DNA of 62,610 nt, filler included, from Dugesia japonica (Eukaryota), in the NCBI GenBank assembly GCA_001938525.1. It is 5 parts of 5 records of this genome, joined end to end, with 100 filler letters (N's around TTAATTAATTAA, not from the genome) between each part and the next. Parts side by side here need not be neighbours in the genome. Positions count along the whole stretch, not along the records: positions 8,624 to 27,701 come from MQRL01645115.1; 4 more parts are not named here. One strand, given 5' to 3'. The translations under genes were made by a program, and so were the position numbers. Of this stretch, positions 2,361 through 35,244 are shown one piece after another. Numbering within the stretch: the first letter of the stretch is position 1; each line of letters opens with the position of its first letter. Below the pieces are notes generated by a model. It was not told the origin of the DNA and ran no database searches. It saw nothing but the letters and a program-made list of their open reading frames with translations.

Positions 2361-2365
2361 TTATT

Positions 2366-7965: not shown

Positions 7966-7979
7966 ACTTTAATAATGAA

Positions 7980-8520: not shown

Positions 8521-8523
8521 TTA

Positions 8524-8623
8524 NNNNNNNNNNNNNNNNNNNNNNNNNNNNNNNNNNNNNNNNNNNNTTAATTAATTAANNNNNNNNNNNNNNNNNNNNN
8601 NNNNNNNNNNNNNNNNNNNNNNN
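8524..8623. other. Artificial scaffold spacer
   Basis: N44-TTAATTAATTAA-N44, identical to the three other spacers. Confidence 0.97.
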
Positions 8624-9869: not shown

Positions 9870-10129
9870 AGGTGGTTAGTTCAAAGGTAATTGATCGAAA
9901 GATGGTTATTTGAAAATATAACAATTAATATTTTATACTTAATCACCTTCTTTATATTCTTCAATTGAGATTCCAAAGCTTTAAATTGATTTTGTGGGTT
10001 ATACAAAGGATTATTCAAGTGATGGTTAACAGAGTGATGTTTAGAAACTTCATGTTTATTCGAAAATAGGTTTTCTTTACTTCTTTAATCATTTCTTTAC
10101 TTTTAGAAATTTTATCATCAGTTAGAATA

Positions 10130-10245
10130 AGTAGTGAGATATGTCCGCATTGCCGCACCCCCTCCCCCCAAGCCAGAAAAATTTGACGAAAAAAAATTTT
10201 TCTGGCTTGGGGGGGGGTGCGGCAGTGCGGACATATCTCACTACT
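10130..10245. mobile_element. 116-bp hairpin mini-element with Polinton-type AGTAGT/ACTACT ends and 6-bp TSD
   Basis: AGTAGTGAGATATGTCCGCA...TGCGGACATATCTCACTACT is a near-perfect inverted repeat, flanked by AGAATA at 10124-10129 and 10246-10251. Confidence 0.9.
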
Positions 10246-10329
10246 AGAATATTATCTTCCAAAGCCTTGAAATGAAATAAAAATTGTTTATTTTTTACAG
10301 CTTCCAATTCTTGTATCAAATTGGTTTAT

Positions 10330-10700
10330 TTAATAATTTTCTTTTTGATTAAACTAACTCTCAGAAACCATGAGCAATTGAATATATTACTGGAATACTT
10401 GTAACTATTCCTGTAACTAGTAATGGAATTCTGAAACCAAGAGTTCCCATTATAATTATTACTCCAGAATCGATTCCAATTATTGCACTTAATCCAACAT
10501 CTGTAAATCTAGTTCCATTATCAAACTTGCTGCATCTTTTTAATAGTTTATTATAATGATCAATCTTTTCTTTTNNNNAATTTAAATCAGATTCAAAATC
10601 CTCGAGTCTAGATTGATTAAGTTTATGTTTTAATTTTTCAATAGTAATTTGATCATTTGAAGGATAATCATCTAATTTTGGATATAGGTATTTAGATGGA
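10330..10700 (-). pseudogene. Polinton small membrane protein
   Basis: YPKL...SRLEDFESDL...KIDHYNKL...RFTDVGLSAIIG; homolog of 2005-2360. Confidence 0.7.
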
Positions 10701-10982
10701 TTTTATCTTGAAAGTGGTTAGATGGGATTTGGTTATTTAAAATTTGTTTATTTGTCAAATCTTCAATTGAGCCTTCTGCAGACCTTTTATAACTATTATT
10801 TTAAATCAATTTACTTGAGGTCAATAATTTAAAATCAATTTACTTGAGGTCTTTAAATAATTCAATTGCTCTTTCTTGATTCGATATTATTATGAATTTT
10901 TGTAATAATGTTTCTTTGGAAAAGATTATATTTATAGAATCAAAGACCTCATCACTATGTGAATAACCAATCTCACTCGATG

Positions 10983-11501
10983 CTATAAAAACTTAAAATT
11001 TTTTTGGTTCTTTAATATCATAACTAAATTTGAAAATGCTTTCAATAGTTTTATATAAATCCAAAAACCTGGTTGACAATAACCAAGGAATAAAAAATAA
11101 AGAATATTTAATTTTTCCAAAAGTTCAAATTTAAATTCTTTTTCTCCAAATGAATGAAAATATTTTATATTATCCAACAAAATTACTTTTGATGTGATAC
11201 CATTTGATCCAATCCCTTTGATACACATCATTTGTTTTAATCTAAAAACACGAATAGATGGTAAATCATTAATTATTATTTCTGTTGATAATTCAAAGAT
11301 TATATCTTTCTTTGAGAGGTTTAGTTTATTATTATTATTTGGAAAATAATTTTCAAGAATATTTCTTGAAGCATCAACTATTGATTTTGAATAAATTTGC
11401 TTGTCTAGTTTTTCCTTTTCCAATTTTCTAAAATAATTTTCCAACAATAGTATTTGAAAAGGTAAAAGATGAATCATTATTTTCTCATATTCTTTTTTCA
11501 T
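10983..11501 (-). CDS. Polinton hypothetical protein (NYFP family)
   Basis: ENYFP...IIFELSTEIIINDLP motif shared with two other copies. Confidence 0.6.
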   Translation of the reverse strand: MKKEYEKIMIHLLPFQILLLENYFRKLEKEKLDKQIYSKSIVDASRNILENYFPNNNNKLNLSKKDIIFELSTEIIINDLPSIRVFRLKQMMCIKGIGSNGITSKVILLDNIKYFHSFGEKEFKFELLEKLNILYFLFLGYCQPGFWIYIKLLKAFSNLVMILKNQKNFKFL

Positions 11502-11518
11502 AATTAATGGAGGATCAT

Positions 11519-12089
11519 TTATACTTTGTAAATGGAATTCAATTTTATACTTTTAAATTTAGTTTTAGAACAATTACTAGATAAATTTTCTACATTTTGT
11601 TTAAGGTTTTTTATTTCTTTTTTTAAATCCTTTCCACCATCAAATAAAAATATTTTGCTAATACTATCTTTTAAATTATTAATTTTAATCAATAAATCAG
11701 TCTTGAGATTAATAAAGTCTTTATTAATAGCTCTAGTATTTTTACGACTCAATTATTCAACCAACTCTTGAATAGTTACTTTATCACGTAATGATTCTTC
11801 TTTTTGTTTTTTAATTTTATCATTTAAGTCTAAGAATTGCTTGGTTATTACATTTTTCAAATATTTTAAATTTATTACATCTAAATCATTTATAGAATCA
11901 TTAGTAACCATCAATCTAGTAATTGTCTCCAGTTTCATTAACAAATTTCTTTTCATTTTTAATGGATTCTTTTACCATAGTTAGTTTCAATTTAGCATCT
12001 AGATTTGTATTTACTTGAGAAATTATATCTTGATCACTTGTTAAAGGTAAATCAAACCTATCCATTATTACATTTGTAAAACTATGCAT
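11519..12089 (-). pseudogene. Polinton coiled-coil/fibre-like protein
   Basis: Starts MHSFTNVIMDRF; contains DVINLKY, KVTIQEL, DLLIKINNLK and NLSSNCS. Homolog of 33374-34012. Confidence 0.65.
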
Positions 12090-12184
12090 ATTTTATCATC
12101 TATTTATTAAATTGAAAATTAGTAATTTTAGAAAGTGTTTGATCAAAGATGGTTATTTCAAAGATGGTGATCAAAGATTGATAT

Positions 12185-12694
12185 TTAAAATATAATCAAA
12201 TCTTTAAATGTTTCATACAATTCATTAAATGTTTCATTAATTGCTGTCGTAGACTTTCCAGATCCTATTTCAAGATTCTTACTCAAAACCATTCTATAAA
12301 TAAAGTAAATACTCAATATTTCACAGATTCTTGTTCCCCATGGTTGCACTTGTATTTTATTGTATATAATCTTATTCGAGAAATAATCATTAATATATTT
12401 AATAGGAGGTAAACCAAAAGAATCAAAATAACAGGCTATTCCTTTGGTTTCTGATCCATAATTTAAAAATAAAGCAACCCAATGACTTTTTCTTTGTCTA
12501 GAGATTTGATAATTAATTATACAAGATTCATAAGCATGATGATAATCCATTTTAAATTCATTACTCATCAAGATTTGAATATTTAAATTTAAATGCTCAG
12601 CTATAGACAGTAAATCAAAATTAGTAGTTGTATTAATTCCAAAGGTTTTAAGAAAGTCTAATATATTATTACTCATTTCAAAGTGTTTGATCAA
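12185..12694 (-). CDS. Adenain-like cysteine protease (Polinton PRO)
   Basis: SHWVA, YFDSFG and QVQPWGTRIC give the His-Asp-(Gln)-Cys catalytic signature. Confidence 0.92.
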   Translation of the reverse strand: MIKHFEMSNNILDFLKTFGINTTTNFDLLSIAEHLNLNIQILMSNEFKMDYHHAYESCIINYQISRQRKSHWVALFLNYGSETKGIACYFDSFGLPPIKYINDYFSNKIIYNKIQVQPWGTRICEILSIYFIYRMVLSKNLEIGSGKSTTAINETFNELYETFKDLIIF

Positions 12695-13439
12695 AGATAT
12701 TCATTTCAAAGTACAACAATTTAATGATTTAAATCTCAACTTCCAAAATCGAGTTACTTGGGAGACTGGTCCTGGGTAAAGGAGGAGGGGGTTACCCAAT
12801 GTGGATTTAGTCTTCTCCATTATGTGAAAAATTACTAATTTTTATTATTGTATTTGAGTTCAATATTTCTTTACTTTCCTCAAAATTATTATGTATTTCA
12901 TGCCCACTTAAAGTGCAATTTTTCATAATTGGATGCTCCATTCTTAAATGATAATAGCTAATTAATTTATATACATCTGAAACAAAATAATTAATACCAT
13001 TCTTTTAATTTTAACATCATATCTTTCTTTTTATAATCAACAGATTGTTGAATTTTAAATAAATTCTCTCCTAATTGAAAATAAATATCATTTTGATATA
13101 ATTTATTATTCTTTAACATTCTATGCAAACTTTTAATTTCATCATAAAGAGTTTTGATACTAAAAGTTAGTGATTCTTGTTTAAATAACTCGGTGGTTGA
13201 AGTGTTAGAATCTTTTATTTGAATAAAAGAGATTTAAAAGATTTCTTTGAATATAAGAAATTGTATAAATTTTAATCGAAGATTTCTTTAAAGAGGGTTT
13301 CTCCATAGAGTGTTTCTTTAAAGGGTTTTCATAAGTACTTTCAAAAGAGTTTTCAAAATATACTAAACTCTTTTCATTTTACAATGTCATTGAATCTAAA
13401 ATCTTTGAAGGAGGTGGGTCAACATGTTCTCTCAAATCA

Positions 13440-13564
13440 AATGTTTCTCTTGGTTTATATTTTTCATCTATAAAATTTAATTTTATTCTATCTATAGTTT
13501 TTGTATTTAATTTAGAATATATTTGATTTGCTGGTCTATCTGTTCATCCATAACCAAAGGGTAC
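13440..13564 (-). pseudogene. Polinton penton (minor capsid) C-terminal fragment, truncated by LTR insertion
   Basis: VPFGYG...IYSKLNTKTIDRIKLNFIDEKY matches the end of 34569-35240 (PIYSKLNTDTISRIKLNVVDENY). Confidence 0.8.
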
Positions 13565-13952
13565 TGTGTTTAAAAGTGTTAGTTGGGCTTGGAAAACTCG
13601 TCGTATTATCAATATTAAAATCCGAATTCATAACAATATTTTATTAAAATCAAAACTATAACCCACATTAATTGTTAAACAAACAAATTAAAATTATGTG
13701 TTTTAATTGGTGATTTTCTTTTCTATAATTTAAAAATTAAAACTTTTATTTAATAAATCTCAGCTTATTTTTAAAATTTTAATTATTAAAAATTAAACTT
13801 TATTATTCAATAATTTTAATTTATCCTTAAACTAATATTGTTTTATTTAAATTTTTCATCAATAATTTAATATCTCATTTAGACAGAAAATTTTAAAATA
13901 TAAGATCACCAATCACACAAAAATTTCTACTTGCTTTTCAAAACTATTCACA
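13565..13952 (-). repeat. Probable 3' LTR (~390 bp)
   Basis: On the minus strand, purine tract AAAAATAGGGCGA is followed by TGTGAATAG at 13952. Ends in CA at the penton junction. Confidence 0.65.
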
Positions 13953-16024
13953 TCGCCCTATTTTTAGAAATTTTTTTATCTTCTCTAAGTTTCTTTCGAG
14001 ATTTTTTCCGTTTGTATCTTCAAAGATGTAACGTCTGTCATGAATCTTTCTCTTGATCTTATAGGGTCCTTCATAACGATCTTGGTTCTTATTTCTTGTT
14101 TCAGCTTTCACTAAGACCTCATCACCGATCTCGAATTGTCTTTTGGTTAATATTTCTTCTTCTTCTTCTCATTGCACTCTTTGGGTATTGGTGTCATACC
14201 ATTTTTCTATGCTTTTTCTCTTCCGAAATACGATTTTCTGCATTAATCAGATCCCGCATAGTTCGAAACTGTCACTCGATTTGTCCATTTGTTTTATGAT
14301 GATATGGACTCAAAAACCTGAGGGTAATGTCGTGTTCATCTGCAAAATCTTTCATTTATATAGACTAAAAAATCTCTTCCACAATCAACTCTAATTTTTC
14401 TCGGACACCCGAATTTTAATATCCAAGTTTCCAATATTGCTTTCCGTATGGTATCTTCATCTTGTCTTGTCATTGCTATCAAGGCTACATACTTACTGCA
14501 TTGGTCTATTATACAAAGAACATATTTCTTTCGACCTCTTGTCTCCGGCAGTGGTCCACACACATCTATAAAGAACAATTCAAACATTTCGACTGGCTGC
14601 GTCTTTTTCGTTTCTTCCTTCGTTTTTGTTGTCAACACTTTAGCTTTTTGGCATGTTATACAACTTCGGACAACCACTTGTACTTTGCTCCAAAAATGTT
14701 TTGCGTTATATTTATACTTCATATTCGCTTCTACTTTTCCTGTTCCAGCATGACACAAAAGATGGTGTATCTTCATTATAACTTCTTCTACTTTATTATC
14801 AGGTATCTATGTTCCTTCATCATTCTCGCCAAACTTGCCTTGTTTTTCTCGAATATCTACTGCATTTAACATCCTTGTTTTAAGTTTTTTATTTTTGGGA
14901 TCTTTATGTAACATAAAACATTGTGCACATGTACCGCATTCATTCCTTGACAACATATCCGCATTTGTATGAAGCAATCCTTTTCTATATTCCAATTTTA
15001 TATCTAAACTGCNCAAATAATTAATCCAGGTTTGAAACTGTGATGTGATTGACTTCTTGGTATTTAGCATAAACGTGATGGCTTTATGATCTGTTCTGAG
15101 GATAAATCTCTTTCCATATAAGTAATTTTGGAAATGAATACAAAAATAGTAAATGGCGTGCAATTCTTTCCGCGTAGTACAATATCTTATTTCATGACTC
15201 GTCATTGTATGTGATCCTTATGCAACTACTCTTTCTTGTCCATTGTTGCCTTTTTGCGATACGGTTTTATGTTGATTGGATCTCTTTTAGTAATTATTTG
15301 ATGCTTCGTTAAGTGTGTACATCCAATGTCCCATTTACCCGCCAAAAAAACATCCTCATTATTCTGAATAATCGCAGCCAATTTATGATATTTTTTTAAA
15401 TTTAGAATCTCCATTGCATGTCTTAATCGTTCACCCGTCGGTATCTGCCTTCCAAATTTTGCCTCGAAGTTGCAAACAAATCTTACTCGATGATTATTGA
15501 TGTCTACTTTGAACTTTTTCTGAAGATGATACCCAAAGTATTCTGAAATTTCACTTCACCAATTAGATCTGGTATTAATTTCTCCACTATTATAAATGTT
15601 ACTTCCTTGCACACCTCTGAAACTACAACTTTGACACGTATCTTTCCAATGGTTATTCGCGCAATGCAATCGTTCCTCATTCTTCTCTAACATTGTTTCT
15701 CCGAGTCTATTAAATCCTTTCATGCTCATCACATCTAGTCTTGCTCCTGTATCCAACAAACAATCAAACTGTTCTCCCTTGCATTTTATCATACGAAATT
15801 TCTGCATTCTGTTTTTCTTCAATTATTCCTATCACTTCTGCTTATTTAACTTCCGTATCATTGAAACTTTCTCTTTTTAATAATCTAAAGACTTTTTCTC
15901 TCACTTTACTAGTCTTGTCCCATTTCTCGGCCTCTTGAGGATATTCAAATAGTATCTCGTTTAATGGATGGCTCCGACCAACTCCTCTACTGATGGAGCC
16001 CTGCCTTTTGGGTAATCTCTTCTT
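13565..16024 (-). mobile_element. Ty3/Gypsy LTR retrotransposon relic, internally deleted
   Basis: Protease LLDTGA (15556-15822), RT N-terminal piece (15226-15414), RNase H ELHAIYY...TDHKAI (14807-15205), integrase HHCC + FIDVCGPLP (14336-14776), GPY C-terminus, PPT and 3' LTR. Confidence 0.9.
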
Positions 16025-17760
16025 GGATAGTGGCACACGAGGTGTGGGTTCGGAAACACATTACGCTTGAGCTGCGATTTTTTTAGACATGAATTTTGTG
16101 CTCGTTTATTTTCTAAGATTTTTGAGATCAAAAAACCTTTGATCGGGTCAAATTTTTTTGATCGAATCAGTTTTTTTTGATCCTGAAAGAATGTGTATGT
16201 GTATTTTTAAATTTTAAATTTTGTGTGTGTTTTAGTTGCTAAGGTGCTTTTTAAAAAGAAGGTCAAGTTGAGTTTGTGTGTTGTTGTGTGTGTGTAAGAG
16301 TGGAAAAAACGAGGAGGAGGAGCTGGAGATCTTGGAAATATTTTTTTTGTGTTTTTGAAGATTTTTTTGTGGTTTAACAAAAATTTGGTCTATATATTAT
16401 CTCAAGGACTTATGAGTTTGGATTTATGGTTTGTCCTACAAGGGTAGTGGCACACGGGTACAGTGGTATGAGTTATCGTGGGTAGATTTTGTGGGAGTTG
16501 TAAGTTTTTATGTTGTTGATGGAATTTGTTGTTTAATGTGTTGTTGGAGAGGTAATGTGATGGTGAAGATGCTAGTTGTCGAATGTGCTTTGATTTTTTA
16601 TTTGAAGGCTTGATTTTGATTGGTTTATTTTGTAAGTAGTATAAGTGTGTTATAAAATTTGGTATGTGTGGAAAGAAAATTAATTATCGGATTTTAAAAG
16701 ATTTATTTGAAATTTTTCTGTCGGTTGGTTATGACGTCATAATTTTTTGAAATATTTAATTTGGTTAAAAATGCTGTATTTTGCTTAAATTGATTAATTT
16801 AATGAAATTAATGATATTTTTGAGTACTTGATGTATTTTTGGTTAATTTTCGGTATTTTGATCAGGGAAGGGTTGATTTGTAAGATTATCGAACAGGGAA
16901 GAAGAGAATCTTGATATTTTTAAAAACATTTTTTGGCGGGAAATTTAAAAAAAATATTTTTGAGCGAAATTTACGGAAAAACGATTACCGAAAAACCGGT
17001 TTACCGAATTATTCGAATTTTCAAATTTTTGCATAATTTGCTAAGGAAATTCTTCGAGAATGTTGATTTTGTATGATTTTAGACAATTATTTCCTCGGGG
17101 ATGATTACTTTTGGCAAACTTGGTCGGTTTTAGGTAATTTTTGAACGAGTTGGTTAGGAATTTTCTCGGTGTGGTCAAATAAGATTAATTTTTGATTGGT
17201 TCAGGTGAATTTGTTGATTACTTCCACGGGTTTAAGAAGTTTGGGCAAATTTGGTTGTTTTTATGTAATGTTTGGGTGATTTGGTCCAATATTTCTACGA
17301 GAATCGTTATTTTGGTCAATTTTTGGCTGGTTCGGATAAATTTGGTCATTATTTCTTCAGGATTGATGTTTTTTAGGTGATTTAAATAAAATTGATTGAA
17401 AATTTCGTAAGATTTGGTTAACTTGGTTAATTATTTGAGTGATTTATTAGAAAGTTTTTTCGGAATTGGTAATATTTGGGTGACTTGGTTAATTATTTCA
17501 TCCAGATTGATCATTTTGGGTAATGTTTTGGGTGATTTGGTCAAATATTTCTTCAGGAATGGTTAAAATGGTTAATCTTTAGAAGATCTGGTCAATTATT
17601 TACTCGTTTTGGATGATTAAGGTCAATTATTTACTTTGTATTGGTAAACTTGGTTGATTATTTACTCACAAGGGTCAATTTTCTATGATTTTTTAGCCAA
17701 CCCTCGGATTGGTCTGTTTAGGTAAAATTCTATACGGAAATTTGTGGGAAATAGACAAAT
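16025..17760 (+). repeat. Probable Polinton terminal/subterminal region with degenerate short repeats
   Basis: Start is homologous to 26795-26990 (CGGAAACRCATTACG..TTGAGCTGCG, GATCGGATCA repeats). TTGGTCAATTATTT-like repeats at 17080-17700 resemble the reverse complement of 2915-3070 next to Polinton genes. Confidence 0.5.
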
Positions 17761-20700
17761 TGTTTAAATGATTCAAAATATATAAATTTTTTATAAGAAT
17801 CAGGGTGTACATCTTCTCAAAATAGGTTAAGAAAATGTCTTTTTGATATAAAATGTTTTGCTGATTCCAAACTTAAATTCGTCAAATTTAATCCCCGGTG
17901 ATATAAATAAGGGTTTGTGGTGAAAAAATCTCAAAACTCGGGGTTTATCGATCAGATGACAGATATCGACTCAAATTTGATATTTTTTTACTCACGAAGA
18001 ATATTGACTGTTAAAATTTAAAATATCATCTCCTGGAAATGTCCTTTCTAACGAATATGTATAAAAAACATTGATTACGACCCGGTAAAAGTAAAATAGT
18101 GCTTGTATGATCTATTGATTTCAAACATAAATGCTAATGATCTTATGACATTAAATGAATTGTTTGCTAGAGTCAACAGTAATATGAAAATAAAAGAATT
18201 ATCATTCATAAAATCAAAAGGTTCAAAATGAAAAAGCAATGATTAATGTTGAAATATTTGGTTACAAAAGTCTTGAAGATATAGTCAAATCTCTTTATTG
18301 AATAAATATTAGTATAATTAAATGACTAATCTTATTAATTTCTACTTTGTTATATTACTTTTTTCTAAATCAAAACATCTATAAAACAAAGGTTTATTTA
18401 GTTCAATCACATATTATTCTATGTTCCAGTAATTGTTCTGTATGACATTTGATAGCTGAAATAATAATATTAAAATAAATTATTAAAATAACTTAAAGTA
18501 TTTGGATCTCTTTCCAATTTTGCATTATTCGAATAATTTGTGTCCCTGTTCATAATATTATCATCTTTCATAAAATCAGGAGAAGAATTCATGTTATTTA
18601 TTGGTTCAATTGAATGGTAAGTGAAATTTTAATGAAAACCAAGGAAATATATGGAACTTAGTGTATATTTATTGAAGTTTTTTAAATATATTAAAACATT
18701 CTAAGTGACATAAAGTAAATTTAGAAATATTTTAAAACTTAGTCTATATTNNNNNNNNNNNNNNNNNNNNNNNNNAAAAATTCATTAAGAAAATCTAAGG
18801 AAATTTAAGAAACTTATTGCATATTTATTGAAATGAATGATCAAATGTATTCAGCTAATGTATTATTGGGAATGAATAGTCAAATGGTTGGATTAATTAC
18901 TTGTTTTAAAATTAGAAGGTTTATTTTTAGTGAACTTAATAGGTGAATGAAATACTTTGAATCTTTAACATAATAAATTACTATGTAAATTGATTGTATT
19001 GGATTAAGTATATTACCTGTACTATTAATTGTAAGATAAAATGGATTATAACTATATAATCATGTTAACCCTCAGTAAACAGTAGAATCATCTTAGTGTT
19101 TATTTTAACAAAAATAGTGACTATTGCTTATAAATTTATGTCTAATGAAACAAATTAAGCATATTCAATAGACTAAATGACTATATTGATTAACTTGAAC
19201 GATTAGATTAAAATACATGGAAGCATTGAATATAATATGTAAGTCAAATACGTAAATGAATTTAATGCATAGGTTTAATAAATGTATCAGATGCATTGAG
19301 TGTAGTAGGTTTATTGACTGTATTTGGTTAATGAATGTNNNNNGTTTAATGATTTGTATTGGTCTAGATAGAATGTATACGAGTGTTGTCAAATTTTCCT
19401 TTGTACTATTGAACAATTTCTAATAGAATTGACTTGTATATACAAATAGAAAGTTTAGAAAATTGAAAATAATATATTTATTTCAAACAATAAATTTAAA
19501 CAAGACATATTTAAGATTTGAAAACAGTTAATTACTAATTTTAATTAAAATTAATTAAAGTTTATANNNNNNNNNNNNNNNNNNNNNNNNNNNNNNNNNN
19601 NNNNNNNNNNNNNNNNATAGTAGGTCTATTTATAATAAAATTCTGACAAAATAAAACGTGTTCATATAAAATGATTACACACATGTTTTTAAATTAATTT
19701 GATGCAACTAAACAAACATAGAATTTTTTTAATATTAGTTTAATAATCAAGAAACGTTATCCTTAATGAAATAAATCAAAAACATATAGGTTGTTGTCTA
19801 GCAATATTAAATAATAGATGATTCCAAACAGTATTAATGTTCAGATTAAATGCTATCAGTCAGAGTTAATATCAAACCAGGTCTACTTTTTGATTTGTTT
19901 TGACTTCTTTAGGCGAAAATTGATCTTTTCTGTAATTTATTTGTTTACTTACTGTTTACTATTTCTCAGTTATCAATGTTTTGTATAATGTTTACTGTGC
20001 ACCGGTATTGAGTTATCAATACTCTGCTCACTGTTTACTGAATAGTAGTTCTCAGTTATCAAAGCTCTGTCCACTAGTACTCAGTCATCCAAGCTTTTAT
20101 CACCGTGCACTAGATTTCAATCATCAATACTCTGTGCACTGTAAACTAATCTTCAGTCATCAATGTTTTTAATCCACTATTTNNNNNNNNNNNNNNNNNN
20201 NNNNNNNNNNNNNNNNNNNNNNNNNNNNNNNNGATTTTATGGTTCGTAATAAATAATTGCCTTATGATTTTCGTGTGTTGACTTGTGTGTTAATACAATA
20301 TTATATGAATGTAATATCTTAAGTAAATTATAAATAAAGTAATATATGTCTTGATCTTATATGAATAAATGAAACATACTTCTTTTTTAGAATGATATTT
20401 TTGATATATAACAATATATTGATTTTTTATGTCTATACTTATATCGCCAGATTTTAATTAAATGAACGACTGCCGCCCTTAAAGGTTGGAGTGTTCAATA
20501 ATTGAAGTCTGAATTTACAATGTAAGAGTTCAGTATTTATACTGAATTTTCCAATCACACACACACATTACTTACATAAGACTTAATCTTTTTCATACAA
20601 ATTAACCTTTTACTTATTAATTCCATTTTAAAATAATTACATTACAAATAAAGTTTTTATAAAAATAATATTCCTTTTAATATTTAATATTTAATATTTA

Positions 20701-21464
20701 ACTTTTATTAATTTTTTACCAAAATTAACAACTACTCTCTAAATATATAGTAGTTTGAAAATAAAATTAAATCACATTCAAAATAAACTAAATCAAATCA
20801 AAATAATAAAATTAAATCACATTCTCAAATCAAAATAAAACTAATAAACAATATCAGCATGAATTAGAGTCAAATAAACAATTAGAGTCAGATAAACAAT
20901 AAATATGAATGTTTGGGGATCTGCTCGAAGTTGGATGATGAATTGGTTTTAATTTGAACTGTCCTGACTGATTTTGGATTGACTTTGAAGATTGCTTGAT
21001 TTCTGTGATGTTATTGTGNNNNNNTGTTTGCATGCTATGTTTTTTGTCTGCGTGTTGTGCATGCTGTGTACTCTGTACCCCAACAACTCTTCACTGATAG
21101 TAAATGTACTGTTTGAATTATTTAAAAACTTCATAAATTTTGCATTAATTATTTTACTTTGATTGAATTAAATNNNNNNNNNNNNNNNNNNNNNNNNNNN
21201 NNNNNNNNNNNNNNNNNNNNNNNTTTTATTGATTGAATAAATTTATGTTTTAAGTAGATAATCAATGGGTAAATTAATTGATTAGAGGATCTATTTTTAA
21301 ATGAAATTTCTATAATAAGTGAAAACTTGTGTAAAAATAACCGGTTATTTTCGTTTATTGCTTGTAAAGTATAGATTACGGGTTAAGTTTAAACCTGAGT
21401 ATATGGATTAATTGATGAAAAGAATAAACATTAACTGAGTGATTAATATTTAAATGATGATATC

Positions 21465-21605
21465 GAGTATTGTGTATGTTAATACTTGATGATAGTGAAA
21501 ATGTATATGTTAATACTTGATGATAGCCAGTATTGTACAGTTTGTATGTTAAGACTTGATGATAGTGAGTATTGTTTATGTTAAGACTTAATGATAGCTA
21601 ATATT
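21465..21605. repeat. Short tandem repeat (~30-40 nt, TGTATGTTAATACTTGATGATAG core)
   Basis: Four visible copies. Confidence 0.8.
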
Positions 21606-21929
21606 ATATTAAGTGTGATTTATAGGTGAATAATGTACATTAAATGAATTTAACGTGTATTTACAAAGATTTTATCACATTATAGTGAAAATACGTGAAT
21701 GATTGACTGAATTATTATATTATCCCCTTTCGAAGGAATTGTATTCGTACAAGGTTCGTTAAAAATACACGGGTTAAATTCCTCCTTGATATTTCTCATC
21801 GTAGGGTATGGGGATGTAGGTCTATAAAATATTTCAAGCGGACGTCTTTGTTTGGTGAGATTATAAATTTTCGGTTCTTTTCCGATCGAATTTTTATAAT
21901 TGTCTGCTATTCTTTTCAATTCTTGCATT

Positions 21930-22853
21930 TATTTTTTTTCTTTATTCAAAGTATCTTCGTAATGTCTGAATAAGGGCGCGTATTTTGGTAAACTTTCAAG
22001 TACCTTAGAACCAATGATATCAACAGTTATGGTGGTAATTTTTTGTCCGGTATATAAAACCGCATGACAGGTTTCCACAATTTCTGTATCCAAGGACTTT
22101 ACTTCTATTATGAGTTTATGAGGTAATTGCGATAACTGTAATTGGAGTAGTTTCTTTTGTTGTTCTCTATTGATATATAGGTTATGATAACGCCCAGTTT
22201 GATAATATAACCGGGGTGATAATATATCTCGATGACGTAGTAGATTAAATTGTGAAGCACTTTTATCTGCAAAGGAATTTTCTGACGAATTCGAAACGAT
22301 CTTGAATTTTAATTAAATTATCGAATCTCCTTAATTCATTCTTTAAATGAAGCTGCATGTTGTCTTTATCTCTTCTGGTTTGTTTTGTTACACTGACTGT
22401 ACATAAGTCTTTCTGTATCTGGCTGAGGAAAATGACGTCTCTCTGCATGGTAATGTTGTTATATTTACCAACTAAATCGATAAATTCTGGAATATCTTCT
22501 TGATAGTATAAGGGTAGATGGTGGGCAATTCTTGTGAAATTGTTAAAGGGAACTTTGAGGATCAATAACATACTAAGTTCTTGTCCAACTTTTAAGGGTA
22601 GCATTTTCAAAAAAGAAACTCGTTTAGGATGAAAGGCGTCTATTTTACAAAAGCGACAGACTGGGTAGGGTGCGAGACTTAAGTTGGAAAGAAGGAAGAC
22701 TTCTAATATACAATTGAAACAGAAATAATGGCCACATTCCAAAATTCGTGGTAGTTTTAGGTATTCAAAACAAATAGGGCATTCAGCATCTTCGGATAAA
22801 TAATAAATAATTTTAGCTACGTCATCCCAACTATAATTTAATGGGTATTTCAA
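21930..22853 (-). pseudogene. RNF10/Mag2-like C3HC4 RING E3 ligase (cargo), one frameshift
   Basis: WDDVAKII...CPICFEYLKLPRILECGHYFCFNCIL..., LKVGQELSMLL, then LYYQTGRYHNLYIN...LPHKLIIEV, in the order of RNF10 conserved blocks. Confidence 0.7.
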
Positions 22854-22905
22854 GGCACGGTGTTTTTCATATAAAATTATAAAAATATACGTCTATGTGT
22901 TTTAT

Positions 22906-25071
22906 TTATTTTGTAATGGATAACGAGAGTTTTTGACCTTCTTCCTCTAAGGCTATGCTATCGTACATAGTATTTTCCCCTATAAACTTAAATTGTCCAT
23001 TAACACGTTTAATTTTTATTTGTTTAGTACCAAATATCACATATGCTTCATCATTGGTTATGTCCTTTATAGTGACTGTGGTATTTACTTTTTTATTAAT
23101 ATACATAATATCAGACATATCAATCAATGATTATCCAAAATCTAGAATTTCGATGTCAGGGTCAGATCCAAGTTCATCCTCACTGGATTCATCATCCGTA
23201 TAATATAGTACATACTGTTTACAGAATCTGACTTCTTCCGTTGTTAACTCCTGTAGTGGCTCCTTTATTTGCTCCTTGTATATTGGTCCTTCAGTTTTGC
23301 TTAGGTTCTCATGATTATCGTCTGAACTTGAATCCTCACTTGATTCATCTTCACTATCATCTGTATCAGAGTCACTATTTATCTGAATGATGTTACCTGT
23401 TGCGTCCTCTATATGTGTGTTCAGTTCAGTATTTTCTTTCCATCGTTTTGGTGACGACGCATTGTCTTCGGTTTCAGATTCATCAAGATCAACATTATTA
23501 TGGTTTAATCGTTAATTCTTTTTATTAATAGTTGGGTGATTTGTATTGGCTTGACAGTATCCATTTTACTGTTGTCTATTTCTTTTAATATTATGGGCCA
23601 ATAAACAGATTTTGGGAATATTTCCTCTCGTGGTAGTATATAAGTTACAGGTTCTAAAACATCCATTTTTTAATCCTTAGTTGGTTTTAGAGTATCGTCC
23701 CATTGATTTGTTTCTTTAAGGTGGATATATGCCTGTCGTATCCATTCAATTCTGTTGTTTGTAGTTTGTGTTATTGTAAGGTTCATTGACCAAATTAATT
23801 CTCTTATTCGAGGTTGGTATTTTATAGGTTTCAATATTGCTTCAACAATTGTACTTATCCGATGTTTTGCTGTATTGGGTTTTGATACTAATTTCTTATG
23901 CCATTTTTCTTCAGCAACCTCTCTATATCCAATAATGTGACTTTGATTCATATGAAGACTGGCTAATTTCTTTTCCAAGTCATAACCAATTAATACTTTT
24001 CCATATAACATTTGTCGGGCTTGGATTATTAACTTGGATTATTATAACCGGGTATGCATCTTCCTTTCCGAGGATTAATTTCTCGTCGTATCCAATTGTG
24101 TCTTTATAATAGTGTTTGATTCGCTCTCTGGGGCATAGTTTCTTGTTCAATAATGTTTTTCCTCTGAAATTCTGAATTGTAATCTCGATCATAACTGGAA
24201 GCATGTAGTGATCTGGTAAGGTTTTAATATCTATAAACATTGACATGGAGTCTATATCTTCTGATGATAGAATGGAATATTTCAAAAATGATATATTATT
24301 TAATAGAGAGGTATCATCTATTCTACAATGACCTCTTATTTTCGTAAATGCAGGAAAAGGTATTGGAAGTCTGTCGTAATACATGAACTCAACTCCTAAT
24401 ACAGCTGGAACATCCTGAATTTCAATTTTGATGTCATTAGCACTTTCCTTCCATATGCCTGTTAGTATTAGGATTTTATTCTGTAGTATTTCTATTTTCT
24501 CTTGATAATGTGTAAATTTGATTGCTGCTTTGGCGACGTGAAACCTTATTTCCTTTATAACTCTTTCTCCATTCTTTACTGCTTTTTCAGGATCGCTAAA
24601 TGTTCCCGTATATCCGCATAATTCTCTGAGTTTATATCTTTTCGCCTGNCGGAATCGGATTAGGATAATATCTTTGTCGAACGTATTATTTTTCAGTATA
24701 TTGGGAATAGTAGTTAAGTTGGTGAAGGGAGCAATTAAAGGTTCAGAAGATTTGTCGAGGAATTCATAATTTTGTATGTTATAGTATAAATTTTGATTTA
24801 ATTTGACTGCTGAGCTTTGTATATATGTGGTGTATGAGGGTACTGCTGCTTAAGTTTGGTTGTTGCCTGTTGATGCTTGCTTTACATTATGTAAGGAGTC
24901 ATGTTTGTTTGTTAGCATGTCTGTTTGTGTTTTATTATTGCTTGTTAATGCTTTTGAGTAATTATGTCTATTTGTCTGCATGTTGTATAATATAGCTGAT
25001 TGAACTGAAGTTAATTGATTGCTATCTATAATGAAAAAGTGTTTAATTGATTGCGTTAACAATAGTATCAA
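22906..25071 (-). pseudogene. Long cargo ORF with degenerate DEDDh (REX4/ISG20-like) exonuclease domain and acidic tract
   Basis: One frame from 25071 to 23980 with a single stop. FIDIKT...IEITIQNFRGKTLLNKKLCP...GKVLIGYDL. Followed by D/E/S-rich segments reading into 22906-23127. Confidence 0.6.
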
Positions 25072-25177
25072 GCTTAATACTCCATCAATAGATGGTAGTT
25101 AATTATATAGATATATATATATATGTATAAATAAAAATATAGATTTAAAATATTCAAATATACATTTTGGAAAGTGT

Positions 25178-25950
25178 TTATACCTGTGTCCATTGGACAT
25201 AATCTGGTGAGTTGGGGGTATTGCGACGCCAATAGCGCTGCCTCTTCCATTTATAGCGTTTGTCAATTTGATAAATTGATACTATAAACGCTACGGGGAA
25301 GAGTAATACACCTGTTCCCAAAATTATAAGGGGAATATTTTTTATTATTTTACTTTCAAGTTCTGGATTTTGTGTAGTGCCCCAAAGTTGTAGAATCTTA
25401 TTCTTATAGTATTAATAATTTTTTCATATTTATTTAGGTCTGAAATTCGATTTCTTATTAAATATTTACTTTCTGTATTATTTTTTATTTTATGATTGTC
25501 GTTTAAACTAGAGTTAGTAGTTATATTTGACTTTATGGGGGTTGATGTTATTATGTTAGTAGTAGGTTTAATTGTGCTTATTTCTGTGGGTATTTGTCCC
25601 CAAAATATATATTTTGGATATTCCGGGAATGTCTGTAGTGTGATAGTTTTGGAAGCGCGAGTAACCCAATTACAACTTCAGATCCAATTAATAGTAGTGT
25701 AATATCTAGTATTGGGTTCTAACCCATACATTTCTACAAATCTTGCTGTATTGCTTAGTTTTGTTCTTACTCTCACAAATAAGCAAGTAAGTCCGTAAGA
25801 GGTTCTATGTGTAGGAACTTCAAATGTGAATTTACGTAGATATATGCCTATTTTTACTATAGGCCAAAATCCTCCGGTAGGTGCTAAATACGTGAAATCT
25901 GCTGAACAACTTGTTATAATAGATAATAATATTAATGACATGATAGGCAA
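25178..25950 (-). pseudogene. Type I membrane protein in env position: signal peptide, FN3-like domain, Thr-rich stalk, TM, short tail
   Basis: MPIMSLILLSIITSCSA; GLEPNTRY...SKTITLQTFP; IPLIILGTGVLLFPVAFIVSIY then KRYKWKR; ends WTQV*. One stop and one frameshift. Confidence 0.65.
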
Positions 25951-25975
25951 TGAATTTTGTGATTGTGATCTGAGA

Positions 25976-26794
25976 TTATAATTGTTTTGATTTTGAAGTT
26001 ATCGGTTCTGTTTCTGCCAATTTGCACCTATTGACAGCAACTACTAAAGGATCATCATTTTTGTTCTTTATGACTTGTAGGTTTGTATCCGTTACTCTTA
26101 CTACCTCAAAAGGTCCTTTGAATATTCTAGTTAGTTTGTTTGTTAAACCTTTTTTTGAATTTGTAGTCTTTATTCGCACTTTATCTCCAACTTTAAATTG
26201 ATGTGGTTTTTTATTTTTGTCATAATAGTCTTTATACTGTTCCTGTTTTAATTTTACTCTCAATCCAGCTTGTTTATATACTTCCTGTAATCTTTCCTGC
26301 ATTTTTGTGACATAATCTGGATTNNNNNNNNNNNNNNNNNNNNNNNNNNNNNNNNNNNNNNNNNNNNNNNNNNNNNNNNNNNNNNNNNNNNNNNNNNNNN
26401 NNNNNNNNNNNNNNNNNNNNNNNNNNNNNNNNNNNNNNNNNNNNNNNNNNNNNNNNNNNNNNNNNNNGTTTTGATTTTTATTGACAAATACTGATAGTCT
26501 GTTGCATAATGTACTATTAAATCTTTCCACAAGACCATCTGCTGTGGGTGGTATGCTGAAGTATTTATCTTTTGAATATTAAACATTTAGTTGACTCTTT
26601 TAACTGTTTCACTTAAGAAATTTCTTCCTCTGTCTAACAGTAGTTTTTTAGGTGCTCCATATTTAAAAATAATTTTTTCCACTAATAGTTTTGCAACTGT
26701 TTTGGCTGATTCATCTTTGGTGGGGAATGCTTCAGCCCATTTTGTAAATACTTAAATACCCAAATATGTTTATTACCTTTTATTGTAGTGGGTA
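25976..26794 (-). pseudogene. Ty3/Gypsy integrase (core + GPF domain)
   Basis: FTKWAEAFP, YGAPKKLLLDRGRNF, TSAYHPQ, ERFNSTL and KGPFEV. Confidence 0.92.
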
Positions 26795-27701
26795 AGTAGG
26801 GGGATAGTAGCGCTAGGCGAGAGGGCCCCCCCCAGGTGGGGCTCGGAAACGCATTACGTTGAGCTGCGTTTTTTTAAATCGATAATTATTGATTATCGAT
26901 TTTTAATCTGATTGATTATCGATTTTTGATCTGATAATTTTTTTGATCGGATCAGATTTTTTGATCAGATCAATTTTTTTTGATCGGATCAGTTTTTTTA
27001 TCTTTTTTTTACCTTTTTTTAAAATTTTTTTTTTACCTTTTTTACCTTTTTTTTAAGAGAGAATTTTTTTTTAATTGTTTTTTGTTTTAATAATTAAACT
27101 TTTTTGTTTTAATTAATGAAGTTTTTTTTTGTTTTAATTAATGAAAATGGTTTGTTTTAATAAATGAAGTTTTTTTTTGTTTTCATAAATACTAGAATTT
27201 TGTTGGTAATTAAAAATTTTTTTTTGTGAGAAGACTTTATATTTATGTATTCTTGATATTTTGGATGCGAAGTATTTATATTTTGCATAGAATGGGAGGA
27301 AATCTTTTTAATATAATTAAATTTAATTAAATAAAATAAATTAAATTAACTTATTTATGCATTGTATGGGCAGTCTCTATATTTATGCATGGTATAGGCA
27401 GTCACTATATTTATATATGAGATGGGGCAGTCTTGATATTTTTAAGATATTATTACAAGATATGTGCAGTCTTGTAATTTTTAAGATATTATTATTACAA
27501 GATATGTGCAGTCTTGTAATTTTTAAGATATTATTATTACAAGATATGTGCAGTCTTGTTATTTTTAAGATATGTGCAATCTTGTTATTTTTAAGATATT
27601 ATTACAAAATATTATTACAATAGTTGCCTAGACTCAGATCCGCAAAATGGTCAGGAATTCCAAGTCAACTGTTATTTATTCAATACATGACATTTTTTTA
27701 T
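26795..27701 (+). mobile_element. Probable Polinton terminal inverted repeat inserted into integrase
   Basis: Begins AGTAG exactly where integrase coding stops. GC-rich tip followed by tandem repeats (e.g. ~38-nt AAGATATGTGCAGTCTTG units at 27440-27620). Shares sequence with 16025-16190 and, inverted, with 29100-29700. Confidence 0.55.
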
Positions 27702-29706: not shown

Positions 29707-31345
29707 TGTTGGGGTCCCACCTAAGTTGAGTGAAAAGGGGTGGTGGCTGGGGAAAAAACAGCATTCAGGGGAACCCTTTTAAGAATTTAACCTAACGCCC
29801 CAGGTTAGGTCTTCAGTTTATGGTGGTTGACCTCTCTCATAATGAGAGGTGCGCGCCCATAAACCTTTTGGTTTGGGTTCATTATTTTCCTTTAACTGGT
29901 ACCAACATTTAAATCAGTGACACTGCAAACATTTATTATAATAAATTTACATTTCGTCTAACACACTAGGGCCTAACCATTGGTCCGGATCTGTCGCTAA
30001 AAATCCGAAGGCGGCGACATCATCGTTATCGTCCCAAGGGACCCAATTTGGGTTGCCAATTTGGCGTGAAAGATCAGCGATGTATTGTTTCAAAAACTCG
30101 ATCTTCCTCAGTAATAATTGCTTGTTTTCGACTTCCAAGGCCTTAGCGTGAACTGCTAAATCGTTCTGCTTTTTTACGATTAAGTCTAACCTCTTTATCA
30201 ATCTGTCCCTCTGAGACAAACGCTTAAGCAGAGCCGATCTGTCTTACGCTCCAAGTGTCTTTCGATCAGAAGTCGGCGCATGATGCGGTGGCACCTACGG
30301 AGGTTATTGGGAAAATTGATGGAGGCACTAAAAAATAAAATAAGTTAAATGTATAATTGTTCGACCACAAAAGTCATGCGAACATTAAGGTAATAACAGA
30401 ATCCAAAAGTTTAATAATAACTTTATTAACAAAAAAAATTTATTTCCATATGACTAGCTTCGAGGGGTCTGAGTGCCCTTCTCGATCATCAACGGCTCGA
30501 GAGGGATTTTCTCCCGGAGAAGTAAAATATCGCTAACCAGTTTATTTTCTCGGTCATGGCTAGACCGGATTATATCCGAAAAAGACTCTACTTGTCTTTT
30601 CCAAATGCGCTCCTGGGAATGAGAGGCTTCTGCTTCCTTTTTAAAGAGCGCGCATTTTTTCTTATAGCGTAAGACCTTACTATTGGCCGCGGATACTTCA
30701 GCTTCCCATCGGCGTTTGGTTAATCGATATAAATCCCACTGAGTTCGAAGTCCGCACTGGTATCTCGGGATTTCTTAGTAGGGGCTGGAGGACGGTTGAA
30801 TGAGGGATGCACTAAAACGAAAAAATATATAACGACAAAAGCTCTCATAACTTTATGTTTCTAAAAAGACACAGTAGTCACAAATTTGATTGCTAAGTTC
30901 TAGAACACCTAATTTGACTTGCAAACCTGGAAAACGACTTGAGAACGAGGAAAAAACAAAAATCTCTTAAAAAACACACAGAACACCGAACATATATTTT
31001 AAACAAGGACATGCAGATAAGTTATTATATGTCACACATATTAATCACTGAGGAGAAGTTGAGGAATCCGGTACGCGTGCGGTATTTTCCGAGTCTTTAC
31101 TAGCCGAAGGCTCTCTTATCTCCCAGAGCAGGTTAGAGATGAAGGACTGTACCGCGGGAGCTGGGGGTGGCATTGTAGGCTGAAACTGGAAAGGCGTCGC
31201 AAGGGGCGAACAGGGCCTGTCCAGGCTCGGTATTGTTGACGCTCGCCGAAGTCTCTGATGCGCTCCACGATAGATTCTACCGGAGGCAAATTTGATCGGT
31301 CGGCCAAAATGGCCGCGTCCCGATTGTGAGGGTTGTAATATCGTC
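29707..31345 (-). mobile_element. GC-richer insertion with small ORFs and a 201-bp LTR-like end, truncating PolB
   Basis: TGTTGG (29707)...CCAACA (29907). Abrupt composition change at ~31345 where PolB homology ends. Confidence 0.45.
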
Positions 31346-32360
31346 GTAAAAATGAAAATGAAATGTAAACATCAGTATTTAATGGAATTAGATTTTTGAT
31401 TTCAGATGGATATAATTTACACAATTCTGTAAAAATAAAGTGATTATCAAATTTTGAAGCATTGTGTGCATAAATTGGAATAAAATACTTTTTTATTGAT
31501 TTATCTTCAAGAATACATTCTTTATGAGCATATCCTCTAAAATTACCATTCCAGTGATTATGATCTTTAACAATTTCTGAATATTCATTAAATATTTTTT
31601 CACAATAATAACATTTTATAGGTAAGCCAACAATTGTAGAAGGATCCAATGGAAACATTTTATCTTTGAGGATTATTTTAACTATTTTATTAAATCTAAC
31701 TAACCAATTGATGAATTTTTCTATACAATCAAGACCAAAGAAATCCATGTAAAGACTAGGAAGTAATGGTGAATTTGAAACTAGATTAAACCCCAAAAAC
31801 ATCGGTTTTAGGATATCATTGTCATTAAAAGTTTCAATATCATAATAAATAGTAAAAGGATTTTGATTTTTGTAATAAAATTTAGTAAATCTATACCTAT
31901 CTTGAAAAGTAAATTTCATGGTTGATGATTTGAAATTAAAACAAGATTTTTGATGATTGGTTAATGAAACAAGGTTTCTTTTAAATGTCATACAGTTTAT
32001 ACAAATTTCTTGTAAATGATGACTCTTGGTAAATATTTTACGTAAATCACGAATTAGTATATAATGATTGTTGAATAATAATAAATTACATTTTCGTTCA
32101 GTATGTAATGGATATGTAATCAAAATGTGTGTGTCAAAATTGTATTGTCGTTTCACATGAAGTTTACAAGCTACACAGTAATATGTTTTTTCAGGTGTTA
32201 CAAAAGTCACTGGCTGTTGGGCCACTGACTGTTGGGCCACTGACTGTTGGGCCACTGGCTGTTGGGCCACTGACTGTTGGGCCACTGGCTGTGCAGAAGA
32301 AGTTTTGAACAAATTTTTGTTATTTTGTTTAGTCGCAATTTCAATTCTAGCTCTAGACAT
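31346..32360 (-). pseudogene. Polinton PolB N-terminal/exonuclease region, truncated
   Basis: NHYILIRDL, IYYDIET (Exo I), DHNHWNGNFRGYAH, PIYAHNASKFDNHFI (Exo II). A 15-bp AQQSV/AQQPV coding repeat lies at 32205-32290. Confidence 0.9.
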
Positions 32361-32529
32361 TTTAAGTATATTTATTTAGTCTTGAATTAAAGTCCAACTT
32401 TCAAAATTTCATTTTTTCCAAAGTCTAACTTAAATTTTTTATATTTGCTAAAACGTCTGGATCCACTTTGTTGTCCACTTTGCTACCAGCCTTGTGATCT
32501 ACTTTGTGATCCAACTTGTGACTAATTTT

Positions 32530-33353
32530 TTATAATTTATTATAATGTTTAATCTTTTCAGATATCCAATTTAAATCATTTTGAAAATCGTACAATCTAG
32601 ACTTGTTTAATTTATTTTTCATTTCTAAAATTAATTCATTATCTGTTAAATGAGATTCTTCATTTCTTAAACTGGGATAGATTTTATAAACATATTTACC
32701 AGTCAAGTCTTGAAAAGAATTTTCAACTTGATAGTCGATTTCAGTAATTCCATCATTATTAAGATCATCATTCATTTTCTATACAAAAATTATTTAATAT
32801 TATTTGTTAAAATTTTAATACTTGATAAAAATACTCCTTTGGAAATCCATATTGAAAAATAAGTAATTTTTATTTTTGGTTTTATTTCTGTCTTTAATGA
32901 TTTTAAACCTGATGTAATTTCATTTGGTGATTGAACTTCTGATGATTTCATTGAAAATCTATATATTTTATTCTTTTTTGGTTCAAATATAAAATTTTTA
33001 AAAGATTCATTTGTTTTTAAAAAAATTTCAATATACTTGGTTTTGGGATATCCTATAAATTCAAAAAACAATTCACCTGGTTAGTTTGTTTCAAAATTTA
33101 TTTTTAATCTATCCAAGAGATGATAGTAATAATTCATTTCAATGATTTCCATTTTTCCTTTTCTTACAATTGATGAAATTTTTAAATAATCCTTGTTTAA
33201 TATGGTAATAACTGGTAAATTATTTAAAGGACTCATTGTTGATAAACTAAAGATTGTTTTGTTCAAATCTTTATCTTGAAAAGATGTAGGTTTATATGGA
33301 AAATAATTATTTACAAGTGATTTTAATTTAATCAACAACAGGTGAATAAACAT
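32530..33353 (-). CDS. Three small Polinton ORFs (truncated membrane-protein homolog 32530-32775; hypothetical 32790-33071; NYFP family 33081-33353)
   Basis: Homology and synteny with copies at 2005-2923 and 10330-11501. Confidence 0.65.
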
Positions 33354-33373
33354 TTTTTATCCAAATTTTCTTG

Positions 33374-34012
33374 TTACAATTTCTTGTAAATCTTGACAAC
33401 ACTAGTCAAATCAAAATGATTAGTTATTAAATTTATTCTACTCTTTAACTCTGGTAAAGGATCGTTTAAAGTTTGAAGATGATATTGTTCATGATATTCA
33501 AACTTGGCTTTCAACACATTTAATTCTTGATTAATCTTTTTTAAAACATCTGGTGAACAAGTACTTGAAATATTTTCAATTTTGGTTTTTAAATCTTTCA
33601 ACTGTTTTTTTATTTCACCATATTTTACATCATCATCATATTTTACATCATTCTTTATTTCACTTTTTAAATTATTAATTTTAACCAACAAGTCACTTTT
33701 TTCTTCAATAAACTTTTGTGAAATTTTTACATTTGCTTTTTCTAATTCTTGAATAGTGACTTGCTGTTTAATTAAAGTATTTTCTAGTTTTTTAATTTTT
33801 TTATCAACAAAAATATTTATATAATAATCAACATATTCTTTATTCACTACATCATGTTTATTAATCGGTTTTGTTTTTATTTGTAAATTTGAAACTGAAT
33901 CACCAGTTTTATTAACATATTTATCATCAATCATTTCCAATAAATTAGAAGTTCCCATTGAATCTAAAGTACTTCCAAATCTGTTCATTATTGAATTTGA
34001 AAATGTATGCAT
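33374..34012 (-). CDS. Polinton coiled-coil/fibre-like protein
   Basis: Intact 212-aa ORF with PINKHDVVNKEYVD motif and heptads. Confidence 0.65.
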   Translation of the reverse strand: MHTFSNSIMNRFGSTLDSMGTSNLLEMIDDKYVNKTGDSVSNLQIKTKPINKHDVVNKEYVDYYINIFVDKKIKKLENTLIKQQVTIQELEKANVKISQKFIEEKSDLLVKINNLKSEIKNDVKYDDDVKYGEIKKQLKDLKTKIENISSTCSPDVLKKINQELNVLKAKFEYHEQYHLQTLNDPLPELKSRINLITNHFDLTSVVKIYKKL

Positions 34013-34016
34013 TTAT

Positions 34017-34529
34017 TTAATACAGATTTTTATTCGATAATAATATTTTCAAAGTCTTTAGTTTGAACCATTCTTTAAATAATATAAATACACAAATCCT
34101 AGTTCCACAAGGCTGTACTTGATTTTTGTTTATTTCACATTTACTTTTCAATCCTAGTAATGTCAATAACTTTTCAACTGGTTTGATTAAAGGTAAGCCA
34201 AAAGAATCAAAATAAAAAGCTAAATTATTAAAGATTACAAGAGCAACCCAATGGCTTCCTTTTTGATTCGAATTTTGATAGTTTATTATGTAATTAATGG
34301 GAATTTTATAATTTTCTAAATCTTGTAAATTAGTCAACTCATTAGACATTACTACTTGGATATTTAAATTTAAAAAATCAGCAATTGTTAATAAATCAAA
34401 ATTAGTCATTGTTTGAATTCCAAAAGTCTTTAAAAAATCTAAAATGTTGTATTCACATTTTACATATACCATTTTTGTATGCGACATTTTGTATGTGTCA
34501 TTTTGTATGCGACATTTTGTATGTGTCAT
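34017..34529 (-). pseudogene. Adenain-like cysteine protease, C-terminus frameshifted
   Basis: GSHWVA, YFDSFG and QVQPCGTRIC. The 5' end overlaps a 14-nt CATTTTGTATGYG repeat (34470-34560). Confidence 0.9.
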
Positions 34530-34568
34530 TTTGTATGCGACATTTTGTATGTGTCATTTACATAAACA

Positions 34569-35240: not shown

Positions 35241-35244
35241 TTAT

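Follow-up and report, generated by a model that had tools for sequence, protein, structure and literature searches.

RNF10 in human and Mag2 in yeast are ligases of ribosome quality control, which are reported to monoubiquitinate uS3 and uS5 and to promote release and decay of stalled 40S subunits (PMC11604940, PMC10878831). In human RNF10, an FPx(L/F) motif is described as docking RACK1 and as critical for uS3/uS5 ubiquitination (bioRxiv 10.64898/2026.08.26.747346). It is also reported that a basic residue at the linchpin of a RING, the position right after the last zinc ligand, stimulates E2~ubiquitin (PMC7667886; also PMC12326332). On the side of retroelements, Burro, the giant Gypsy element of planarians, is described as bearing captured host domains, including ubiquitin-related MATH/TRAF, Ubi/SUMO-like and BIR domains (PMC6431247). 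Bdelloid Juno and Vesta have extra 3′ ORFs after pol, among them a DEDD-family exonuclease and TM-bearing env-like ORFs, according to the account in PMC5408684, and an orchid Ty3/Gypsy element carries a host RNA-surveillance enzyme, an AlkB m6A demethylase, as an extra ORF, as reported in PMC9289625. The locus described here comes from Dugesia japonica.

The RNF10-like gene and its lesions

The window, by which we mean the whole stretch of DNA that was analysed (62,610 nucleotides, filler included), is AT-rich, and its contigs are joined by N plus TTAATTAATTAA spacers at 8524, 27702, 37173 and 48426. An intronless gene of the RNF10/Mag2 family lies on the minus strand of the contig at 8624-27701, at about 21680-22892, and is broken in this copy into the following segments.

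22263..22892, minus strand: segment 1, a stop-to-stop frame with WDDV, C3HC4 RING, YPVCRFC and VGQELSMLL
21929..22312, minus strand: segment 2, in a frame different from that of segment 1, with the YYQ...LYIN...LPHKL block
21680..21928, minus strand: segment 3, in which the frame of segment 2 is resumed past a stop

In segment 1, the WDDV pre-RING strand (22829-22818) is followed by the C3HC4 RING at about 22781-22656 (Pfam zf-C3HC4, E 3e-8), with a basic linchpin directly after the last cysteine, and by the VGQELSMLL post-RING strand (22589-22563), after which comes a helical hairpin. The block of segment 2, with YYQ at 22207-22199 and LPHKL at 22126-22112, belongs to the C-terminal RNF10 domain. 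In segment 3, an unguided MAFFT alignment places the sequence YPTM (about 21808-21797) in the RACK1-interacting motif column, where the other rows have F in 43 of 64, P in 46 of 64 and L in 28 of 64. All the blocks named in the original prediction, WDxV before the RING and the VGQELSMLL and YYQ...LYIN...LPHKL blocks after it, are thus found on the minus strand and follow the order given there. They lie within the proposed extent of 21930..22853, while the end of the gene does not, since it continues about 250 bases further to about 21680.

Three lesions are seen in the window copy. A frame break near 22273 separates segments 1 and 2, a premature stop at 21929-21931 closes segment 2, and the codon of the seventh zinc ligand (22665-22667) is damaged, leaving seven of the eight ligands. 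No in-frame methionine was found upstream of the RING. An intron was considered as the cause of the frame break and ruled out, because no GT-AG pair is able to span it. The last zinc pair, YPVCRFC, had been suspected to be either mutated or shifted; both cysteines are kept in all 62 rows of alignment A3, and this codon reads differently in sister contigs, so it is mutated, and a shift is ruled out. With its frame break and premature stop, the window copy is a pseudogene, incapable of acting as a ligase, and the idea of a working enzyme has to be given up for this copy.

Relationship to RNF10 and Mag2

When 1.84 billion representatives were searched with phmmer, 387 matches at E 0.001 were obtained. 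The best were P0001 (UniParc UPI00060E077F; 386 aa; E 2e-19 over query positions 5-187) and P0002 (445 aa; E 2e-13), both with alignments extending far past the RING. Among the best 150 of the 387 matches, 91 satisfied a seed-profile rule for RNF10-likeness, and after removal of one multi-RING false positive 90 are counted as RNF10-like. Thirty clusters were looked up, five of which carry the name RNF10 (from Opisthorchis, Fasciola, Trichobilharzia, Hypsibius and Cacopsylla), the others being unnamed or generic. Other searches with the window ORF gave less: word-index protein searches returned no match, an alignment search returned P0001 and two RING proteins only, and ESM Atlas pointed to eukaryotic C3HC4 clusters at a recognition value below the Atlas threshold.

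To look from the opposite direction, 59 cellular RNF10-like proteins, without the compact relatives, served to build profiles, which were run on all 2507 six-frame segments of the window. A RING-free post-RING profile ranked segment 1 first of the 2507 (E 4.3e-7; runner-up 0.21), and the pre-RING profile, which contains WDDV, also ranked it first, at only E 0.07. The cellular profile of the C-terminal domain did not detect segment 2 among the 2507 segments. This profile matches P0001 (E 9e-13), P0002 (7e-6) and, weakly, P0004 (0.08), and segment 2 is in turn the best of all 2507 segments for the C-terminal half of P0001 (E 3.5e-4; next 4.9) and for a three-sequence profile (E 0.002); P0002 or P0004 alone did not find it significantly among the window segments. 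The C-terminal link is therefore transitive: as far as these profiles go, the C-terminal block of the window gene is tied to RNF10 only via the compact relative P0001.

Judged by its anatomy, the window gene is an RNF10 relative. The ancestry that had been proposed for it agrees with a similarity that reaches beyond the RING, and the best matches are RNF10-like outside the RING rather than members of other RING families.

Retroelement setting

Further features are found around the gene on the same strand, in a stretch that is without N from 21224 to 24648.

25976..26800, minus strand: Gypsy-type integrase remnant (core plus SH3-like tail), recognised by tblastn to the window's other integrases and to that of the metagenome locus L001
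25345..25998, minus strand: ORF remnant following integrase, with a start that is hydrophobic and signal-like and with a weak FN3-like Pfam match (E 0.09)
23670..25098, minus strand: broken DEDDh-exonuclease-like ORF, having a 46-aa segment in common with the 717-aa ORF of L001
22910..23511, minus strand: remnant of an acidic ORF, the next one upstream of the RING gene, with a stop at 23131-23133 and without Pfam match
21723..21731, minus strand: polypurine-tract-like run GAAAGGGGA on the downstream side, followed by a very high-copy stretch

The RING gene had been described as co-oriented and downstream of integrase. The orientation is right, and the distance needs correction, in that some 3 kb, with three co-oriented ORF remnants, separate the gene from the integrase remnant. 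The integrase remnant is 55% identical to the L001 integrase over 131 positions (tblastn) and is truncated at its 5′ side by another repeat. The remnant at 25345-25998 possibly encoded an env-like surface protein, to judge from its predicted features; it gave no BLAST alignment to its L001 equivalent, and the likeness between the two is architectural only. For the exonuclease-like ORF, neither a direct Pfam match nor a match of its exonuclease-like part among PDB sequences was obtained. On the other side of the gene, depth climbs from hundreds to tens of thousands in a stretch at about 21226-21767, which, judged by this depth, is likely a 3′ LTR or another repeat; no 5′ LTR matching it was found in the contig 8624-27701. 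Gag, RT and paired LTRs were found neither in this contig, which ends at 27701, nor in L001, which starts inside integrase.

L001, of 6071 nt, is the one locus obtained when metagenomes were scanned with P0002, and has the following ORFs.

2-1804: integrase-signal-TM ORF, an open frame, the integrase part being 2-620
2055-3392: intact RNF10-like ORF (P0002, 445 aa), 250 bases after the integrase ORF
3723-5876: exonuclease-like ORF of 717 aa, after the RNF10-like ORF

Thus at least one intact element-linked relative exists. A Gypsy-type integrase is co-oriented and contiguous with an RNF10-like gene both in the window (25976-26800) and in L001 (2-620), these two being the cases where linkage is seen, while P0001 and P0004 are known as proteins alone. 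The domain of the 717-aa ORF is assigned at 0.94 to RNase_T/DEDDh clusters by ESM Atlas, and its common 46-aa segment with window 23983-24849 is 41% identical (E 1e-5). On reading, the first acidic motif of this ORF looks lost or degenerate, and a long proline-rich tail follows. Identity between the RING genes of the two loci is only some 30%, yet both loci have integrase linkage and a second cargo in common; the cargo order is unlike between them. The L001 integrase agrees with the linked integrase of the window in 60 of 109 columns versus 56 of 109 for another integrase of the window, and the linked pair, by this count, is not clearly a pair of sisters. Viral contigs searched with P0002, P0001 and the L001 integrase gave no locus.

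Sequencing reads tell about sister copies of the window gene. Four DNA runs gave 313-631 contigs per run over 21600-23700, a number from which, as contig depth, copy number does not follow; these are mostly 80-95% alike and leave none of the 30 bins empty, which shows that both the gene and its upstream neighbour exist in diverged sister copies. The RING gene and the upstream ORFs are covered at the same order of depth. The three lesions are not common to the whole family, since each of the four runs has sister contigs that read differently from the window at the frame break, at the premature stop and at the seventh zinc ligand. Contigs of diverged copies bridge 22927-23191, and among 32 listed of 2197 pieces no strongly diverged contig bridges 22880-22927. 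Some contigs depart from the window sequence at 23008-23042, and not all relatives of the element may carry the RING gene. Among the 25 best-supported of hundreds of difference sites, counted in the frame followed across the break and without the site beside it, third codon positions make up 2, first positions 8 and second positions 15 (binomial p 0.0035). This third-position deficit would fit, indirectly, mutations private to the window copy at sites conserved among its sisters, a kind of site that such a listing favours. Three raw RNA runs were read to 6-25%; over 21768-23122, depth is zero in two of them and does not exceed 1.3 in the third, with both strands counted and reads mostly diverged overall, so that the low depth is uninformative on expression.

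Several other repeats were observed in the window. Two copies of a repeat end (26807-27086 and 16030-16285; 66-72% alike) cut integrase and abut another Gypsy fragment, and their AGTAG-like start presumably resembles the ends of Polintons. DNA polymerase B-like frames, protease-like frames with HWVAL...YFDSFG and a capsid-like ORF occur at 1-13300 and 31100-36700, which we take, by these motifs, to be Polinton/adintovirus-like remnants. The minus strand at 49590-60812 holds another long element of Gypsy type, with gag zinc knuckles and integrase, in which about 6 kb of cargo follows on the 3′ side; this cargo comprises TM-bearing ORFs, coiled-coil ORFs and a pair of similar Cys-rich ORFs (53811-55408), none having a clear Pfam match.

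A compact clade

In a tree of 65 rows, in which the window gene was read through with X at the breaks, the window gene, P0001, P0002 and P0004 form one long-branch clade (SH-aLRT 95-96, FastTree 0.90). The terminal branches of the clade are 1.3-2.4 long versus a median of 0.78, in keeping with the fast evolution that had been supposed, and the tree tool warned that long-branch attraction is possible at such lengths. The placement of the clade beside Entamoeba or other long rows is taken as such an attraction. The clade did not group with flatworm RNF10, and such a grouping was not rejected (AU p 0.23); a donor from this host is unproven, as the tree neither found nor rejected it. The clade itself is supported by a shared derived feature, the basic linchpin: K or R stands there in all four members versus one of 56 matched cellular rows. 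The cellular RNF10-like proteins mostly vary at this position, with F in 13, N in 9, S in 7, Y in 7 and R in 1 of the 56, and the near-absence of a basic residue from them may relate to their mono-ubiquitin output.

The intact relatives are 27-33% identical to one another and 18-26% identical to other family members, and all eight zinc ligands, invariant in 62 alignment rows, are present in P0001, P0002 and P0004. Compact relatives have 319-445 aa, where the cellular median is 601, and the RING is preceded by about 50 residues in them versus a median of 136. An ANF-type N-terminal motif found in 33 of 56 cellular rows is absent from the compact clade. At the other end, strict FPx(L/F) is found in none of four element-type sequences versus 16 of 40 cellular tails (1.5 when shuffled). 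The RACK1-interacting motif is absent from P0001, P0002 and P0004, the first and the last of which end before its position, and YPTM, a variant of it, occurs in the window alone among the four. All four retain the C-terminal domain specific to RNF10, as judged for the window via P0001 only. Since this second RNF10-specific domain is retained throughout, the comparison suggests that substrate recognition was kept.

Predicted fold and role

An AlphaFold model of P0002, made with 62 homologues (pLDDT 79.5, pTM 0.74), retains the RING and the C-terminal domain; the latter folds together with the post-RING strand into a beta core, and the model also has a helical hairpin and a long terminal helix. 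Residues 114-322 of the model superpose on the FIP200/RB1CC1 Claw with Z 7.6 and rmsd 2.6 over 79 aligned residues, the next match having Z 4.9. By this middling score, a Claw-like fold is possible for the structurally unsolved core of RNF10, for which no solved structure was found among PDB sequences. Foldseek of the model against PDB and viral models gave no match at E 0.001, and weak matches involved the RING only.

On balance, we take the window gene to be a decayed copy of a compact RNF10/Mag2 gene inherited as 3′ cargo of a Gypsy element, whose intact members are likely active and are predicted to be ligases directed to the 40S subunit. That it is cargo of a retroelement is very probable, as the multi-copy region and the independent L001, with integrase and then an intact homologue, argue for the residence originally supposed. 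That the ligase is active in intact copies we consider likely, and that it is still directed to the ribosome has a little less than an even chance. How could such a cargo arise and act? An ancestral element would have captured a spliced RNF10 mRNA in a single event; N-terminal and tail regions would then have been trimmed, and a basic linchpin would have been gained, which may have strengthened E2~ubiquitin activation while the protein was retained as an active ligase. Speculatively, it could ubiquitinate at or near uS3 or compete with host RNF10, and in this way alter the clearance of ribosomes stalled on long element RNAs. With 40S subunits marked or shielded, long element RNAs might be translated, or host decay might be blunted. 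It should be noted that in one study loss of RNF10 is reported to have left Sindbis virus replication unchanged (bioRxiv 10.64898/2026.01.29.701737), so a benefit for a parasite is not given. In its widest form, only tentatively held, the proposal would be that an old and diverse animal Gypsy/env-like lineage carries a captured, streamlined RNF10 with retuned catalysis, along with a nuclease of DEDDh fold, and uses both to take over 40S quality control.

Other explanations are to be weighed. The cargo may have the same origin and, when intact, be a ligase retargeted away from ribosome docking; its target would then be a host factor of restriction or silencing or, while particles assemble, a protein of the element. 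Loss of the RACK1 motif in three of three intact relatives, gain of the basic linchpin, absence of the ANF-type motif and an identity of only 18-26% to other family members all speak for it, and Burro elements are described as bearing other ubiquitin and apoptosis domains (PMC6431247). Against it stand the C-terminal domain, kept in all four members, and the motif that the window family holds on the RACK1-docking column. We regard retargeting as rather unlikely, and it stays a serious rival because the docking motif is lost in the three intact relatives, while a ribosome-directed role is favoured because the second RNF10-specific domain is kept in all four.

It is quite improbable that an RNF10 retrocopy was simply picked up by the element and carried without function. 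The window copy is indeed broken, RNA reads over it are at background (in three partly read runs, which are uninformative), and cargo of rotifer LTR elements is reported to have no clear link to copy number (PMC5408684), but relatives as diverged as 27-33% identity would hardly retain open frames and all eight zinc ligands without function, and the third-position deficit across the break also points the other way. Very improbable, too, is that the gene is no cargo of the element at all, being a divergent family of host RNF10 paralogues, a retrocopy landed by chance near debris, or a chance join of the assembly. Such a reading could call on the gappy assembly, on the interval 22880-22927 without a strongly diverged bridging contig among the 32 listed pieces, and on P0001 and P0004 being known as proteins alone; it is opposed by L001, which independently repeats the integrase linkage and the second common cargo, by the lack of an N gap at 21224-24648 and by even multi-copy depth. 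An independent processed retrocopy, which the original prediction had named as the competing origin, is opposed as well: no poly(A) is found at the window gene, the sole A-run (8) being inside the ORF, and no target-site duplication above chance, the longest common flank word of 9 nt being equalled by most shuffles.

If the intact ligases are active, uS3 ubiquitination and 40S decay would be a battleground between host and transposon. By which of its parts does RNF10 find the ribosome, and by which is its mono-ubiquitin output set? The natural variants of 319-445 aa, with their changed linchpin and lost or altered RACK1 motif, would allow these questions to be tested, and if the takeover of 40S quality control is true, they would define a minimal RNF10 core.

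Comparison with known systems

In the literature searched, no capture of RNF10 by a transposon was found, Repbase, where such an element may be listed, lying outside the comparison; nor was any mobile element or virus found reported to encode a ribosome-surveillance E3 ligase. Papers naming both RNF10 and retrotransposons include none on capture, judged by their listings. One on a bat Helitron that names RNF10 (PMC4778049) was set aside, as the part consulted describes a promoter insertion rather than a capture.

Compared with Burro, whose cargo is described as lying inside a giant Gag-Pol or Gag-Env-Pol polyprotein or in an upstream ORF, the cargo of the window and L001 consists of separate ORFs 3′ of integrase, and RNF10 is not among the Burro domains listed in PMC6431247. 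In Juno and Vesta, ORF3 is given as a DEDDy exonuclease and a RING is not mentioned in the main text of PMC5408684, whereas the nuclease-like ORF of the window and L001 is RNase_T/DEDDh-like. The orchid element differs in enzyme and host, and its demethylase is reported to have demonstrated activity (PMC9289625), while that of the RNF10-like cargo is predicted. LTR elements with captured host genes are known, and among them no ligase of ribosome quality control as fixed cargo was met in the literature searched. With RNF10 of human and Mag2 of yeast, the element versions have in common the WxxV strand, the C3HC4 RING, the post-RING strand, the FYQ...H(L)P C-terminal domain and the long helix, all in the same order, but they are compact, intronless, multi-copy and linked to integrase, with a basic linchpin and a RACK1 motif that is lost or variant.
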